Assembly: GCF_964213995.1 (NCBI RefSeq)
Contig: NW_027590219.1
Coordinates: 372,001-436,000, forward strand
Length of the DNA: 64,000 nt
DNA from: Mustelus asterias
Lineage: Eukaryota
Reading direction: 5' to 3'
This document shows, piece after piece, positions 1-50,850 of this stretch (positions within the stretch are counted from its first letter, which is position 1; each line of letters begins with the position of its first letter). Below the pieces are notes generated by a model. That model was given only the letters and a program-made list of their open reading frames with translations, did not search any database and was not told the DNA's origin. The translations under genes were made by a program, and so were the position numbers.

Positions 1-3000
1 TTTCCCCCCTCCGGCTGAACATCCGTAAGGTGTAACCCCCGGATATGAGTACCACTGGAGGGTTGCATCCCCCGGCAGGTGGACAAACCCAGGGGACGGT
101 GCCCTTATGCTTCAGTGTTTATTTTTTTTTTGTTGTGTACAGTTGTAGTGTTGTGTTAATGTTTGTAGATTTGTAGATTATGATTTGTAAATGGAGGTGT
201 ATTTTGAGGGCAATGCCTGGAAAACTGTAATTGATGATGGACCCTTCCGAAATGGAAGGTAGTAATTGATAAATGGATGGTGTTAGCCATCGGTAAAGTA
301 TTTTTCAGATTTGTTCTTTGTTTATTTGTAATTGTTTTGTAATATCGTGTTTGTACTAACGAATGGAAAATCTTTGCATTGTTTGTGGCCTGGGGGGTAT
401 CCCCCCCCCCCGGATAGAGTGACCCCCGGGGGGTGTGACATCCAGTTGGGGAAAGTGTCCGGGGCACCCAGAATAGTAACACCGGGGGGGTTTTGTTCTC
501 CGGGAGAAAAATTGGGAAGGCAGGCCGAATTGAGTATCCCGGAGAGCTTTTCCCACCGCCCCAGCCGAAAATCCGGAAGGCAGTCCGGATTGAGTAGGTT
601 CGGGGTGGTTTTCCTGTCCCCCCGCCTCCAGTCGAACATCCGTCAGGTGGAACCCCCGGACCTGAGTACCTCTGGAGGGTTGCATCCCCCGGCAGGGGAA
701 AAAACCCAGGAGGCGGTGCCCTGGAGGGCGGCGGATATGCTGCAATGTTTATTCTTGTAGTGTTGTACTAATGTTTGTCACTTTGTAGATTATGATTTGT
801 AATTGGAGGTGTATTGAGAGGGCAATGCCCTGGAAAACTGTAATTGACGATGAACCCTTCCGAAATGGGAGGTAGTAACTGATAAATGGATGGCGTTAGC
901 CATTGGTAATGTATTTTTTCACATTTGTTCTTTGTGTATTTGTAATTGTTTTGTATTAACGTATTTGTAATAAACAAAAAGAAACCAACATCTGTGAGTG
1001 GGAAAGATTGGATTGTCCAGCCAGTCCACCATATTGGCCGTTCGCTTTGCGTGTTGGCCAGTATAGTGTGCTCCAGGCAGGGGGCGGGCAGAGGATAAGG
1101 AGTTCAAGGCGGGCTTAATGCGCGCCTTGCGGTGAGCTTTTGGAAATGTGGCCGCTGGGAGGAACGCCTTGGTCGGCGTGAAGTTTCTGTTTCAAGTGCT
1201 TGGGTTCGTGACTTGTGCAAGAACTTTTTGTTTCGGCTGGGGCTTGTTGAATGCTGCTCTCGCTGGGATTCCTGTGCCTTGAAAGGCGTGGCCCAGGTAG
1301 ATGCAATCTCGGAAGACCCAAGCCAGGGAGGAGCCATTTGGGAACTATGGTTTCGGAAGGTTCAGCCGCGGAAGGTGTGACCCCAGACGGTGCAGCCCCA
1401 GTGGGTGTGATTTTGGAAGTTCTGGCCCGGAGTGGTGGACTTTGGAGGACTGTAGTTGAGCGTTGTCGACTTCGGACGGTGGAATGTTGATGGGCGAAGC
1501 ACTGGAAGGCGATGCCTCCAAAATGTTTCACAATTGTATGGTTGTTCATGGATTGTTTGTTATTGTAATATGTGGTTTTCCTGTTATGATAGTTGGTGGT
1601 TTGTTCCGGCCCCCGTCTATTTTCTTGCGTTATTTGTGGCCTGGGGGGCATCCCCCCCTGGATAAAGTCACCCTCGGGGGGTGTGACATCCACTTGGGGA
1701 AAGTTCTGGGTGGTGAAGCCCCGGATATAGTAACACCAGAGGGATTTTATTCTCCGGGAGAAAAATTGGGAAGGCAGGCCCGAACTGAGTACCCTGGAGA
1801 GACTCTCCCACCGCCCCGGCTGAAATTCCGGAAGGGATTCCGGATTGAGTAGGCGGGGTGGTTTCCCCCATTTCCCCCCTCCGGCTGAACATCCGTCAGG
1901 TGTAACCCCCGGATATGAGTACCACTGGAGGGTTGCATCCCCCGGCAGGTGGACAAACCCAGGGGACGGTGCCCTTATGCTTCAGTGTTTATTTTTTGTT
2001 GTGTATAGTTGTAGTGTTGTGTTAATGTTTGTAGATTTGTAGATTATGATTTGTAAATGGAGGTGTATTTTGAGGGCAATGCCCTGGAAAACTGTAATTG
2101 ACGATGAACCCTTCCGAAATGGAAGGTAGTAATTGATAAATGGATGGTGTTAGCCATCGGTAATGTATTTTTCAGATTTGTTCTTTGTTCATTTGTAATT
2201 GTTTTGTAATATCGTGTTTGTACTCACCAACGGAAAATCTTTGCATTGTTTGTGGCCTGGGGGGTATCCCCCCCCCCCCCCCCCCCCCTGGATAGAGTGA
2301 CCCCCGGGGGGTGTGACATCCAGTTGGGGAAAGTGTCCGGGGCACCCAGAGGGGTAACACCAGGGGGGTTTTGTTCTCCGGGAGAAAAATTGGGAAGGCA
2401 GGCCGAATTGAGTATCCCGGAGAGCTTTTCTCACCGCCCCAGCCGAAAATCCGGAAGGCAGTCCGGATTGAGTAGGTTCGGGGTGGTTTTCCTGTCCCCC
2501 CGCCTCCAGTCGAACATCCGTCAGGTGGAACCCCCGGACCTGAGTACCTCTGGAGGGTTGCATCCCCCGGCAGGGGAAAAACCCAGGGGACGGTGCCCTT
2601 ATGCTTCAGTGTTTATTTTTTTGTTGTGTACAGTTGTCGTGTTGTGTTCATAGATTTGTAGATTATGATTTGTAAATGGAGGTGTATTTTGAGGGCAATG
2701 CCCTGGAAAATTGTAATTGACGATGAACCCTTCCGAAATGGAAGGTAGTAACTGATAAATGGATGGCGTTAGCCATTGGTAATGTATTTTTTTCACATTT
2801 GTTCTTTGTGTATTTGTAACTGTTTTGCATTAACGTATTTGTAATAAACAAAAAGAAACCAACATCTGTGAGTGGGAAAGACTGGATTGTCCAGCCAGTC
2901 CACCATATTGGCCGTTCGCTTTGCGTGTTGGCCAGTATAGTGTGCTCCAGGCAGGGGGCGGGCAGAGGATAAGGAGTTCAAGGCGGGCTTAATGCGCGCC

Positions 3001-4746
3001 TTGCGGTGAGCTTTTGGAAATGTGGCCGCTGGGAGGAGCGTCTTGGTCGGCGTGAAGTTTCTGTTTCAAGTGCTTGGGTTCGTGACTTGTGCAAGAACTT
3101 TTTTGTTTCGGCTGGGGCTTGTTGAATGCTGCTCTCGCTGGGATTCCTGTGCCTTGAAAGGCATGGCCCAGGTAGATGCAATCTCGGAAGACCCAAGCCA
3201 GGGAGGAGCCATTTGGGAACTATGGTTTCGGAAGGTTCAGCCGCGGAAGGTGTGACCCCAGATGGTGCAGCCCTAGTGGGTGTGATTTTGGAAGTTCTGG
3301 CCCGGAGTGGTGGACTTTGGAGGACTGTAGTTGAGCGTTGTCGACTTCGGACGGTGGAATGTTGATGGGCGAAGCTCTGGAAGGCGATGCCTCCGAAATG
3401 TTTCACAATTGTATGGTTGTTTATGGATTGTTTGTTATTGTAATATGTGGTTTTCCTGTTATGATAGTTGGTGGTTTGTTCCGGCCCCCGTCTATTTTCT
3501 TGCGTTATTTGTGGCCTGGGGGGCATCCCCCCCTGGATGGAGTCACCCCCGGGGGGTGTGACATCCACTTGGGGAAAGTTCTGGGTGGTGAAGCCCCGGA
3601 CATAGTAACACCAGATGGATTTTATTCTCCGGGAGAAAAATTGGGAAGGCAGGCCCGAACTGAGTACCCTGGAGAGACTCTCCCACCACCCCGGCTGAAA
3701 TTCCCGAAGGGATTCCGGATTGAGTAGGCGGGGTGGTTTCCCCCATTTCCCCCCTCCGGCTGAACATCCGTAAGGTGTAACCCCCGGATATGAGTACCAC
3801 TGGAGGGTTGCATCCCCCGGCAGGTGGACAAACCCAGGGGACGGTGCCCTTATGCTTCAGTGTTTATTTTTTGTTGTGTATAGTTGTAGTGTTGTGTTAA
3901 TGTTTGTAGATTTGTAGCTTATGATTTGTAAATGGAGGTGTATTTTGAGGGCAATGCCCTGGAAAACTGTAATTGACGATGAACCCTTCCGAAATGGAAG
4001 GTAGTAATTGATAAATGGATGGTGTTAGCCATCGGTAATGTATTTTTCATGGATTGTTTGTTATTGTAATATGTGGTTATCCTGTTATGGTAGTTGGTGG
4101 TTTGTTCCGGCCCCCGTCTATTTTCTTGCGTTATTTGTGGCCTGGGGGGCATCCCCCCCTGGATAGAGTCACCCCCGGGGGGTGTGACATCCACTTGGGG
4201 AAAGTTCTGGGTGGTGAAGCCCCGGACATAGTAACACCAGAGGGATTTTTATTCTCCGGGAGAAAAATTGGGAAGGCAGGCCCGAACTGAGTACCCTGGA
4301 GAGACTCTCCCACCGCCCCGGCTGAAATTCCGGAAGGGATTCCGGATTGAGTAGGCGGGGTGGTTTCCCCATTTCCCCCCTCCGGCTGAACATCCGTAAG
4401 GTGTAACCCCCGGATATGAGTACCACTGGAGGGTTGCATCCCCCGGCAGGTGGACAAACCCAGGGGACGGTGCCCTTATGCTTCAGTGTTTATTTTTTGT
4501 TGTGTACAGTTGTAGTGTTGTGTTAATGTTTGTAGATTTGTAGATTATGATTTGTAAATGGAGGTGTATTTTGAGGGCAATGCCCTGGAAAACTAATTGA
4601 CGATGAACCCTTCCGAAATGGAAGGTAGTAACTGATAAATGGATGGCGTTAGCCATTGGTAATGTATTTTTTTCACATTTGTTCTTTGTGTATTTGTAAT
4701 TGTTTTGTATTAACGTATTTGTAATAAACAAAAAGAAACCAACATC
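1..4746 (+). repeat. Complex tandem array, ~1.87-kb unit (partial 1-992, 993-2866, 2867-4746) built from a unique module C plus duplicated GC-rich (G) and AT-rich (B) modules; possibly the amplified 3' portion of a non-LTR retroelement
   Basis: The junction AATAAACAAAAAGAAACCAACATC ends at 992, 2866 and 4746; module C starts TGTGAGTGGGAAAG at 993 and 2867; the G and B modules each occur six times (some partial). Confidence 0.9.
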
Positions 4747-4755
4747 AGAGAGGTT

Positions 4756-4828
4756 GTTTCTGTAGTGAAGTGGTTGTCACGTTTGCCTGACACGCGAAAG
4801 GTCCCCGGGTCAGAACCGGGCAGGAATG
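4756..4828 (+). tRNA. tRNA-Val-derived sequence (anticodon GAC), probably a pseudogene
   Basis: GTTTCTGTAGTGAAGTGGTTGTCACGTTTGCCTGACACGCGAAAGGTCCCCGGGTCAGAACCGGGCAGGAATG closely follows vertebrate tRNA-Val. Acceptor, anticodon and T stems pair, but the T-loop/B-box is altered (GTCAGAA) and there is no T4 terminator immediately downstream. Confidence 0.8.
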
Positions 4829-4829
4829 T

Positions 4830-5708
4830 TAATTTGTTAATTCCAGCATCTGAAAGTGGGAAGGGGGAGGAAGGTGAGCTGTTGCCTGCCTGCCTGCTGT
4901 CCGGCCTGCCTGCCTGCCTGTCGTCTGGCCTGCCTGCCTGTCGTCTGGCCTGCCTGCCGTCTGGCCTGCCTGTCTTCCGTCCGTCCGCCCACTGGAGGGT
5001 GCTCTCTCCCTGGAGGGAGAGAGGACACGGAGTGACTTTCTTTCTTTTTTCTTTCCATCTCTGGGAGGGAGGACTGCACGTTTCAACATCGAGGGACTGA
5101 GTGGTTGGGCTGGTGCCCTCATCATCAGAAGGTCGGTGCCTGAAAGGGATGGGGGGGTGAAGTAAATTCAGACTGTTTTTTCCATCGGCGGGCGGGCGGG
5201 CGAAGACACCCCGGACTTGAACTGTTTGCGCCCAAAAGGGCTGGAGGAGTAAAGTCCCCCACCCACTGCTGCTGCCCCCAACACCGGCGCCCCCAACACC
5301 GGCACCCCCTCCCCTCTTTCCCCCTGACTGGGGCACCGGCCCCCCTCCGTGCCTTGTCCCTCGTCCTCCCTCCTGCTCCTCCGACCTCCTCTCTCGCTCC
5401 GGGGAGAGAGCACCTAGATCCCCATCCACCTACCCTACCCTCCCTTATTTTTCCCTCCTCTTATACGCCCTGCCGTGGCAGAGCCTTCTCGGCCCACCTA
5501 TGCGGGCGTGGCAGCTGCCAGAGCCCCCGCCGCTCCCAAGGCCCTGCCACCTTTTTCGTTGCTCACGCGGCAGCTCGGGGTGAAGTGCTACGCCCACCCC
5601 GACATGTCCATCGAGGCCTGTGTCAAGGCAATGGCTGGGGTTGTCGGCCCCTCAGCCATTGTCGCGGCCTCTAAGATGTACGGCCGGGCCGTATTCTTTT
5701 TGAAGGCC
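4830..5708 (+). mobile_element. Tx1-clade LINE 5' end: 5' UTR plus ORF1 N-terminus (5475-5708), 3'-truncated
   Basis: Translation LLTRQLGVKC..MSIEACVKAMAGVVGPSAIVAASKMYGRAVFFLK matches the Tx1 ORF1 N-terminal motif; similarity stops at ~5708. The 5' boundary is uncertain. Confidence 0.75.
4884..4985 (+). repeat. Imperfect (GCCT)n microsatellite
   Basis: Repeated gcctgcctgcct / gtctggcct units. Confidence 0.85.
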
Positions 5709-24398: not shown

Positions 24399-25526
24399 AG
24401 CGGCTGCTCAGGAATCCGCTCCTCCAGCCGTATGACTTCAGGTGGCTGGCGGAGAGGAGGGCTGTGGACGCCGGGGTGACCAGAATCGGGGATGCGCTCG
24501 ATGGCGGAGGGGCTGGCTGAGCGCGCGGGGACGACCGTCCGGCACGCGGCCAAAGTCTTCCTAGACCTTAGGACGGTCGTGCTCGGCCCCGAAACTGCAC
24601 GCAAACTCGAGACGGCGCAGGCGTGCGGTGGGATCCTGCCCGAGCGTTCCCCTGTTCGGACGGAATTCCACATTGGCCCAAAACCTCAATCCCCCTCCTC
24701 AACCCCCACAGCCTGAGCCGCCTCGCGGAAATGTCCTCCGTGCCTTTTTCTACCGCGCGGAGGCGTTTCCTGTGCGGGCTGCTGCTGCACACCTTCCACT
24801 ACCGCCTCCTCGCCTGTCGCCCGGATACACCTTGGCGGGCCTTGTTGCCGCCGGGCGGCAGAGATCCCCGCTGGAGCTCCCTCTACGGAGGGATCTCCCC
24901 CAATTACGTCGGGGACCTGGGGTGGAGGGTGATGCATGCAGCAGTGCCACACAACCGTAGGATTCACTGGTTCACGGGCTCCGAAGACTGCCCTTTCTGC
25001 GGCCTTGTGGAGTCCGTGGACCATGTCTATGTTGTGTGTCCTAGGCTGCACTCCCTTTATGTTTTCCTAAAAAACCTTTTATTGATGTTTTGTTTGCACA
25101 TCAGTCCCACGCTCCTGATCTACGGACACCCGGTGCGGAGAGGGGAGGGTCGGGATGGCGACCTCCTCGTGAACCTGCTCCTGGGCCTGGCGAAACGCGC
25201 CATTTACCGGTACAGGCAGTGGGCGATCAAGGGGGCCGTCCATCCTGACTGTCTGCCCCTCTACCACGACTACGTTCGCGGCCGGGTGTCCCTGGAGAGG
25301 GAGCATGCGGTGTCCACGGGCGCGGTTGACGCCTTCCGCGCCCGCTGGGCACCGCAGGGGTTGGGGTGCATTATTGACCCTGACAATCACATTTTAATTT
25401 GATGTTTTTAAGTTTCCTTTGTACTTTGATTTCTGTTCGGGCTGTTCCCCCTCCTTTTGGGGAGCTGCCCCTTTTACTTTGTCCTGATTTAATCTGAGTT
25501 TGTTTATTTGGTTTGACCTAAAAAGA
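24399..25526 (+). mobile_element. 5'-truncated Tx1-clade LINE (ORF2 C-terminus with CCHC/zf-RVT, 3' UTR)
   Basis: GDLGWRVMH..CPFCGLVESVDHVYVVC..RARWAP (ORF 24623-25402); ends AAAAAGA; 11-bp TSD GG(C/T)CACATCTG at 24388-24398 and 25527-25537. Confidence 0.88.
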
Positions 25527-49515: not shown

Positions 49516-49716
49516 CATGAATTAACAAACAGTATCTGAATAGACAGGATAAATTTGACTTTAAAAAGCTCAGACAATAAAAACACGTTTCACAAAATCA
49601 CAAACATTTCCCCCTCACTATATTTGGCTCTAATTCCAGTTCCAGAGAATTTCTCTGTCTCTGTATTTCCCAGGGGAAGAAAGAAAGTGTTTTACTCACA
49701 GATGTTGTCCAGAGGA

Positions 49717-50314
49717 TGAAGTTGGAGTCTGTGTGTGAAGTTTGAATCTGTGTGTGAAGTTTGAGTCTGTGTGTGAAGTTTGAGTCTGTGGTGAAGTTTG
49801 AGTCTGTGTGTGAAGTTTGAGTGTGTGCGTGAAGTTTGAGTCTGTGGTGAAGTTTGAGTCTGTGGTGAAGTTTGAGTCTTTGTGTGAAGTTTGAGTCTGT
49901 GTGTGAAGTTTGAGTCTGTGGTGAAGTTTGAGTCTGTGTGTGAAGTTTGAGTCTGTGTGTGAAGTTTGAGTCTGTGGTGAAGTTTGAGTCTGTGGTGAAG
50001 TTTGAGTCTGTGTGTGAAGTTTGAGTCTGTGGTGAAGTTTGAGTCTGTGGTGAAGTTGGAGTCTGTGGTGAAGTTTGAGTCTTTGTGTGAAGTTTGAGTC
50101 TGTGTGTGAAGTTTGAGTCTGTGTGTGAAGTTGGAGTCTGTGTGTGAAGTTGGAGTCTGTGGTGAAGTTTGAGTCTGTGGTGAAGTTGGAGTCTGTGGTG
50201 AAGTTTGAGTCTTTGTGTGAAGTTTGAGTCTGTGTGTGAAGTTTGAGTCTGTGGTGAAGTTGGAGTCTGTGGTGAAGTTTGAGTCTGTGTGTGAAGTTTG
50301 AGTCTGTGGTGAAG
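49717..50314. repeat. Minisatellite, 18/20-bp unit TGAAGTTTGAGTCTGTG(G/TGT), ~31 copies
   Basis: Contiguous tandem units without spacers. Confidence 0.95.
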
Positions 50315-50319
50315 CTACA

Positions 50320-50850
50320 AACAGAAGCTGTTCTGTTTCAAATCAAACTGCGGGACTTGGAAGAATTTGATGGGAAGAGATTTTGCAAAGTCCCCTCCCC
50401 CACTCCCTCAGCTGGCAGCCCAGCGCGCAGGCGCAGAGAGCGCTGCTGAGCCGAGCTGTCCGGAGCAGGCGCAGAGAGCGCTGCTGAGCCGAGCTGTCCG
50501 GAGCAGGCGCAGTGCGGCTGCCGCCAACGGTCGCTCTCGATCTCTTTTTGGAGCCGCCGGAGAGAGAGGGGGGAGGGGGAGATCACCGAGCGGCTTCTCG
50601 CTCTGGCCGGAGCCGCCAGCCGGTTGCCTGGAAACCTTGGCTCGAGGGGGTGCAGGAGGAGGGGAACAATGGGTGGGGGCGGGGCTCCCGGGTCCGCGCG
50701 CCCGGGCCTGCGCGCGCTTTGTCCCATTGTCTGAATGTAGAGTTCAGCTGCTCATTCCTGCCCAGCAAAGCTGCTGCTGCTCTCTCTCTGAATGAAGATT
50801 GAGCTTCAGACAGACTCAAACTTCCTCCTGTCGGCACCATCTGTGAGTAA
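50320..50850. promoter_or_regulatory. Bidirectional CpG-island promoter between the 46263 (-) and 52625 (+) genes
   Basis: GC-rich with GCGCAGGCGCA motifs and a GC box; plus donor CATCT|GTGAGT at ~50842; minus donor at ~49694-49699. Confidence 0.62.

Follow-up and report, generated by a model that had tools for sequence, protein, structure and literature searches.

What are the long tandem units that open the 64,000-nucleotide stretch of Mustelus asterias DNA analyzed here (the window), and why do they stop nine bases (4747-4755) short of a tRNA-Val-like sequence? An earlier note on this DNA took them for a truncated or non-autonomous element of the Tx1 clade that targets tRNA genes. Our analysis shows that the unit is a young, dispersed, noncoding and non-autonomous retroposon of the kind that has no long terminal repeats (non-LTR), 1.2-2.5 kb in length. 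The non-autonomous part of that description therefore holds and the tRNA target does not. The unit sits at the exon-1 splice donor of C2H2 zinc-finger (ZNF) genes, and we put at about three in four the probability that it does so through what is likely read-through transcription from the host promoter, followed by what is likely reverse transcription in trans by the second open reading frame (ORF2) protein of a Tx1-clade element.

In the window, AATAAACAAAAAGA occurs at 969, 2843 and 4723 and AACCAACATC at 983, 2857 and 4737, and neither is found elsewhere in its 64 kb. These motif positions bear out the earlier description of units that each end in the same 10-mer, the last of them 9 bp before the tRNA-like sequence. 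Reading of the DNA upstream of the window, which the note had advised, showed the rest of the array. It comprises five units, starts 4613 bp upstream of the window and has unit lengths, in order, of 1241, 1841, 2486, 1859 and 1865 bp, each unit being built of a ~625-bp head and one to three copies of a ~620-bp sub-repeat. The word at the unit junctions, CCAACATCTGTGAGT, is indeed a duplicated target, as had been proposed, but it is 15 bp long rather than 10 bp (Table 1).

What the unit targets is a splice donor, that of exon 1 (CCAACATCT/GTGAGT) in multicopy C2H2 ZNF genes, a cluster of which contains the window; empty target sites also occur within it. A genome-wide search with the unit and a tabulation of its 3′ flanks, both suggested by the earlier note, were carried out on the 3.68-Gb assembly and returned dispersed copies with ZNF donor flanks. 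Among 69 array segments surveyed, the outer 5′ flank was readable in 53 and the outer 3′ flank in 56. The 5′ flank is ZNF exon 1 in 50/53 arrays and an LTR in 3/53. On the 3′ side, 25 of the 56 arrays end in ZNF intron 1, and six each end at tRNA-Val-headed Tx1 inserts, at micro Tx1 tails and at tRNA-derived passengers; the remainder end at exon-1 copies (2), at a donor insert of another kind (1), at an upstream position in exon 1 (1), within a further unit (1), in an LTR (4) or off target (4). The outer 3′ end lies at the donor, or at an insert stacked there, in 46 of the 56 arrays. The 5′ end is uniform: the exact 23-nt 5′-end pattern has 181 matches, 179 of them directly preceded by CTGTG[AG]GT, and the preceding base is never other than T.

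Use of the site as a donor was assessed with contigs from four runs of other organisms, marked as probable RNA ("RNA?", a guess) and aligned to one empty site, the joint between exon 1 and exon 2 being inferred from the sequence of contig loose ends (24 of 155 loose-end rows viewed). Loose ends fall at 50843 in X1 (1), X2 (4) and X5 (5), and at 50832 in X5 (2) and X13 (7). At least 19 contigs depart from the genome at or just before 50843, reading CATCT and then GATAT..., and these loose ends match exon-2 starts that follow acceptors in the window. The 15-bp duplication spans positions −9 to +6 of the donor. Because it holds the whole donor, the sequence implies that exon 1 keeps its donor, that the insert comes to lie in intron 1 and that each junction between units offers a new target; because each insertion regenerates the target, units stack. 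The AATAAA of the element could cut host transcripts short. Other occupants of the donor were also seen. At L168, L178, L180, L181 and L183, micro-insertions made up of only the last 15-17 nt of Tx1 lie between two copies of the donor 15-mer, and the head-to-head neighbor gene that has the promoter region of the array in common (C187:366113-366547, minus strand) has a stack of three Tx1 3′ fragments at the donor of its own exon 1.

If the donor is the target, the tRNA-Val-like sequence behind the array calls for its own explanation. It scores 45 bits with Rfam and is called tRNA-Val (GAC) by ARAGORN, and 10-12 of its 73 positions, some in the T-loop/B-box, are unlike those of canonical-type copies. 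Downstream of it follow the 5′ untranslated region (UTR) of Tx1 and then an ORF1 start that is ~94% identical to intact Tx1 copies, which themselves carry a more decayed tRNA-Val-like head (22 differences). The sequence is the degenerate head of an older Tx1-derived insert at the same ZNF site and is likely not a functional host tRNA gene. Such heads are present at 30 loci; in the 23 that were read, the head directly follows ZNF exon 1 in 20 and a unit in 3. The combination of head and ZNF cassette is a copied one at 19 of 20 fetched loci, with 97-99% identity, and at L090 the tRNA-headed insert continues to a Tx1 3′ end, ending AAAAGAGG, and then the target. Other tRNA-derived passengers (Arg; Asp/Gly-like) that end in a Tx1 tail stack at the same donor, and 3 of the 6 Asp/Gly-like ones read end AAAAGAGG and then the target. 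Passengers of this kind, stacked at the donor, explain the impression of an association with tRNA genes.

An element that targets tRNA genes in the manner of Dewa, a Tx1-clade element with a multicopy target in tRNA arrays, would accommodate the 6 of 56 arrays that run into a tRNA-Val-like sequence and the 6 more that run into a tRNA-Asp/Gly-like passenger, but 44 of the 56 have neither neighbor at the 3′ junction, and the tRNA-like sequences belong to other inserts, which end AAAAGAGG and have the target next to them. Neither the unit nor its target nor the 10-mer was found within 1.5 kb of any of 30 canonical-type tRNA-Val loci (30 of the 72 found), and the empty tRNA-Val loci preceded by the 10-mer that the earlier note had advised looking for were likewise seen at 0 of these 30. 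We consider this explanation refuted and give it scarcely any credence. Two further kinds of tRNA-derived insert were encountered. At L107:8692-8766 and L108:8694-8768, a ~130-bp tRNA-Arg-headed insert resembling a short interspersed element (SINE) carries a Tx1 tail at the same donor with a ~14-bp duplication. Away from ZNF sites, tRNA-Val copies with a short Tx1 tail are flanked by direct repeats (L216:1466-1540 and L218:1484-1558) and are likely template-switch retrocopies.

The youth and dispersal of the unit are evident from its copies. The unit head has 319 candidate matches genome-wide, the best 40 at 99% identity or above, and mean head identity across 105 copies is 98.7%. In contrast, 49 exon-1 flanks have a mean identity of 79% and fall into 17 clusters at 95%; thus, the copies did not merely ride on gene duplication. 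At ten off-target loci the copies are 5′-truncated, 256-1498 bp long, and all end AAAAAGAAA, a fixed 3′ end. Duplications of 13-15 bp flank 6 of these 10 (5 of 9 distinct insertions, two loci being one insertion), and truncated copies with duplications of their own sit on large contigs. Among single-unit insertions (n = 24), a perfect 15-bp duplication is present in 11. The bases 3′ of AAAAAGAAA track the local target (CCAACATC, TCCACATC, GCCACATC or CCCACATC), and the rare variants CCCACATC and TCCACATC are exactly duplicated at L176 and L183. Because the bases past the element end vary with the local target, the 10-mer is target and not the invariant internal part of the repeat that the earlier note had named as evidence for an ordinary satellite. 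Multi-unit arrays, variation in sub-repeat number and some identical paralogous loci are what one would expect of such a satellite, or of a single insertion that multiplied solely as ZNF genes were segmentally duplicated; the 99% identity of the element against 79% in its flanks, the dispersed single copies, the separate duplications of the truncated copies and the junction words that follow the local target are not. As the sole mechanism we regard it as refuted and hardly credible, although DNA-level duplication does contribute, secondarily. The identical 5′ junctions had been read as either a defined element or unequal crossing-over: the 5′ end is defined, and crossing-over also acted.

Units were also found inserted within the first ~60 bp of the head of another unit (L143, L158, L163, L170 and L182), a form of self-targeting. 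At C181:462356 (minus strand) a short A run closes one unit, and next to it come an exon 1 copy and then another unit; the A run suggests a polyadenylated template.

Protein and profile searches found no reverse transcriptase (RT) or endonuclease coding capacity in the unit, and an autonomous Tx1-clade element was rejected as its identity, an APE endonuclease and an RT-bearing ORF2 being absent from it. No RNA polymerase III head (tRNA, 5S or 7SL) matched inside the unit at the Rfam gathering score, so that the unit is not a classical SINE. No Rfam ribozyme family matched the unit either, although an undescribed ribozyme may be present, and two snoRNA matches fell below the gathering score and were taken as chance. 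Of the long, structured 3′ UTR proposed earlier, the structure is weakly supported by folding, with z = −2.05 for the GC-rich part of the sub-repeat and an absolute z below 2 in 14 of 15 120-nt segments.

The enzyme would then have to come from elsewhere. Intact Tx1 copies are many in this genome, and a 1304-aa ORF2 is present in 17/17 of those fetched. The ORF2 of the candidate partner (L104) contains endonuclease and RT domains and is 48% identical to Xenopus Tx1 ORF2 over 1297 aa; among 120 homologs listed for its RT region, the highest identity is to a stingray protein, at 78%. Inserts ending AAAAAGAGG share the −9 position of the unit and have 12-16-bp duplications, which are also found in 5 of 21 dispersed Tx1 copies. 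The Tx1 fragment in the window has AAAAAGA at 25520-25526 ahead of its target duplication, just where it had been reported. Judged from sequence, the intact Tx1 family is likely the source of the partner enzyme, and the shared −9 position and duplication length support the earlier idea that Tx1 machinery drives the unit.

The unit could instead be the 3′ part of a different, unfound autonomous long interspersed element (LINE), its head an eroded ORF2 end and its source a truncated master behind a ZNF promoter, with the enzyme of that LINE doing the moving. Such a parent would fit the lack of a 3′ tail shared with intact Tx1, an off-target preference slightly different from that of Tx1, and a 93-codon open frame in the unit head that is intact in nearly all of 150 copies scored (150 of 325 candidates). 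That frame, for which a likeness to LINE ORF2 C termini is unsupported, matched only clones of itself in this genome. It has no match in Pfam, in a homolog search for longer proteins, among 1.84 billion representatives, in the ESM Atlas (best, 0.81) or to a profile of 25 Tx1 ORF2 C termini, and no exact 5′ start of the unit continues into nontarget sequence. Moreover, tblastn against intact Tx1 proteins gave no meaningful match, and the sub-repeat pattern had 0 matches in metagenome contigs. We consider another LINE unlikely as the source and retain the intact Tx1 family as the candidate partner. Three observations concern the Tx1 copies themselves. The intact Tx1 copies at L101, L105, L114, L115 and L117 have a diverged ZNF exon 1 copy within their 5′ end and form tandem stacks at a second site, which lies ~45 nt upstream of the donor. 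Among dispersed Tx1 copies, those nearest in sequence to the intact one favor TCT-type flanks and the more diverged ones NCA-type flanks. A 28-nt motif common to the unit sub-repeat (4423-4450) and the Tx1 5′ UTR (4989-5016) is 75-84% identical, a marginal match (E = 0.14) that is possibly a shared hairpin.

The few copies in LTRs bear on how the 5′ junction is made. At the three LTR loci, a 25-nt exact match to the ZNF exon-1 end and donor precedes the unit, and thus exon 1, upstream of the unit, is where the template RNA likely began. The 5′ flank at L151 consists of ~249 bp of recipient LTR, duplicated, which switches at a shared 10-mer, some 25-30 nt beyond a TATA-like box, to ~160 bp with 99% identity to the LTR leader of C19; a similar leader switch, further along, is seen at the C26 locus. 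These features fit host-promoter transcription in which the end of the cDNA then pairs with homologous DNA at the recipient site, as has been postulated for R2 (PMC3774820). Leader annealing of this kind would account both for the uniformity of the starts and for some of the imperfect duplications. From the shared leader, the spread appears to have run from C19 to C3 and C26. A host leader on the template RNA, as in R2, is indicated indirectly by the 179 of 181 uniform starts, the captured exon tail and the LTR switch. The C19 locus itself (C19:82811000-82828500) holds at least seven units. Every one of them is preceded by a duplicated LTR segment of 212 bp, tail duplications of ~168 bp occur in addition, and the last LTR copy continues into apparent retroelement coding sequence.

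These observations also raise the view that leader homology, open promoter chromatin and selection, more than recognition by the endonuclease, determine where the unit is found: a loosely specific nick would be widespread, and full-length copies would arise only where the leader anneals. Off-target sites have only three bases in common with the donor site, the non-LTR off-target copies read are all 5′-truncated, and three loci show a subfamily with an acquired LTR leader that has again entered LTRs, all as this view predicts. Short inserts that lack a leader, namely the micro Tx1 tails and the tRNA-derived passengers, nevertheless use the same −9 position, which indicates a real nicking preference. 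We hold a dominant role for leader homology to be possible but doubtful; it is a refinement of host-promoter read-through and Tx1-driven insertion, not an exclusive alternative to it.

In the mechanism that we favor, the unit would be transcribed by read-through from a host promoter (presumably by RNA polymerase II), the enzyme would nick 9 nt before the GT, and reverse transcription would prime on the AAAAAGAAA end of the element. The cDNA would extend into the host leader and anneal to homologous recipient sequence, giving the invariant 5′ junction. The resulting −9 to +6 duplication would keep a perfect donor, place the insert in intron 1 and offer a fresh target for the next copy, hence the stacking, while unequal recombination between near-identical copies would change unit number and exchange flanks. 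On this scheme the window array would combine a promoter and exon 1 from one paralog group with a downstream cassette from a different group.

Evidence for such an exchange comes from the locus itself. The upstream flank of the array matches none of 18 empty cassettes, and the mismatch extends through the promoter; a flank mismatch of the same kind, to a varying degree, is found at the five other arrays in front of a tRNA-Val-like head. A sister locus on C160 shares ~2.8 kb of the upstream sequence at 98%, and the array there ends in ordinary intron 1, while four paralogs at 94% have an empty donor. Thus, arrays at two ZNF loci have likely recombined to give the one in the window. A 5′ flank that is merely a converted exon-1 leader was considered and rejected, since the mismatch to all 18 empty cassettes spans the promoter.

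Several points weigh against this overall account. The flank sample was taken from top-scoring matches, which biases it to full-length copies and under-counts truncated off-target ones. Duplications are lacking at 4 of the 10 off-target loci, and of the 24 single-unit insertions, 5 have a duplication with one mismatch, 7 have two to four mismatches and 1 is mis-registered. The contigs that mark the donor are from other organisms and from runs whose RNA status is a guess, and intron-covering, unspliced contigs are also present at the empty site. The unit and the intact Tx1 3′ tail share only AAAAAGA after a T-rich stretch, and the best blastn match between the two (E = 0.14) lies elsewhere in the sequence. 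Most full-length intact Tx1 copies read end at the second site in exon 1, ~45 nt upstream, and off-target flanks are CCA or TCC for the unit versus NCA in 15/21 Tx1 copies. Extension 5′ of module C, which the earlier note had expected to lead to an RT-coding parent, uncovered none, and no coding parent was found in genome or protein searches. Finally, the recombinant flanks may be assembly mis-joins across repeats.

Table 1. Features of the array and of related sites in the window
Start	End	Strand	Feature
1	984	+	Unit 3 of 5, 3′ part, with three sub-repeats; unit starts 1501 bp before the window; ends AATAAACAAAAAGAAA
985	999	+	15-bp target duplication CCAACATCTGTGAGT, ZNF exon-1 end and splice donor; GT at 994-995
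1000	2858	+	Unit 4 (element 5′ start at 1000): ~625-bp head (module C, without protein match), sub-repeats from about 1635 and 2251; AATAAA and AAAAAGAAA at end
2859	2873	+	15-bp target duplication CCAACATCTGTGAGT; GT at 2868-2869
2874	4738	+	Unit 5 (element 5′ start at 2874): head, sub-repeats from about 3510 and 4136
4739	4753	+	Altered target copy CCAACATCAGAGAGG, 5′ junction of the older tRNA-headed Tx1 insert
4756	4828	+	tRNA-Val-derived degenerate head of Tx1-type element; anticodon GAC; T-loop/B-box altered
4829	5708	+	Tx1 5′ UTR (TGCC-type repeats) and ORF1 start (5475-5708); breaks off at ~5709
6920	8104	+	C2H2 zinc-finger coding exon downstream of the Tx1 head
24380	25528	+	5′-truncated Tx1, ORF2 C terminus, ends AAAAAGAGG; inserted in another ZNF gene, homologous exon-1/donor site
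50815	50848	+	Unoccupied target, formed by ZNF exon-1 end and donor (GT at 50843)

Elsewhere in the window, a 19-bp minisatellite of about 32 copies (49717-50314), the reverse complement of which is a piece of the ZNF exon-1 motif, lies immediately upstream of a donor on the minus strand, at 49699.

Work on zinc-finger families usually treats them as repressors of transposons (PMC10547256). Here transposons colonize ZNF genes and may reshuffle them. If our account is right, a protein-coding splice donor is a further kind of safe site, made safe by duplication of the donor itself. The copies in LTRs amount to a natural experiment in the redirecting of integration by a 5′ leader and bear on the joining of LINE 5′ ends. 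More tentatively, and with less than even confidence, we suggest that a promoterless retroposon homes by means of an RNA leader taken from its host promoter, be that ZNF exon 1 or an LTR, with the leader guiding full-length copies to homologous sites; that duplication of the donor leaves it neutral to splicing; and that recombination joints between its copies swap promoters and first exons among zinc-finger coding exons, speeding ZNF evolution. In the full-text literature searched, Repbase and most subscription papers aside, we found no paper on a Tx1 element or passenger that targets ZNF exon 1.

Comparison with known systems places the unit among them without equating it with any. Targeting of tRNA genes, the hallmark of Dewa, was tested for the unit and failed (0/30 loci), and SVA elements, unlike the unit, are not known to have a fixed target. 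Xenopus Tx1L (P0031) resembles the candidate partner, the ORF2 of which is 48% identical and has the same domain order, and has a similar preference for repeated-sequence targets; Tx1L targets the Tx1D transposon (PMC4494074), and the unit itself encodes nothing recognizable. R2, in 28S rDNA, is similar in that cDNA end annealing has been postulated at its 5′ junction (PMC3774820), but R2 is autonomous, targets rDNA and bears an HDV-like ribozyme at its 5′ end (PMC3774820, PMC5035012), whereas the unit matches no ribozyme family and its host is a protein-coding family, presumably transcribed by RNA polymerase II. Close parallels are with SINEU and Tx1-Mar of crocodilians, in which, in the account given in PMC4494074, non-autonomous passengers share the preferred target of a Tx1 element, often in tandem, with no recognizable shared 3′ tail and with transcription proposed from flanking sequence; some Tx1 families also bear small-RNA-derived heads, as here (PMC4494074). 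SINEU elements are mostly <500 bp, have snRNA heads and target a Mariner transposon (PMC4494074), whereas the unit is 1.2-2.5 kb, lacks a small-RNA head and targets a protein-coding splice donor, and the Tx1 head here is tRNA-derived. Finally, 5′-transducing SVA elements of the MAST2 subfamily are likewise about 2 kb, noncoding and mobilized in trans, with captured host promoter transcription and a variable internal repeat (PMC4494074); SVA, however, is moved by L1 (PMC4494074), and the unit described here returns to the same host site.

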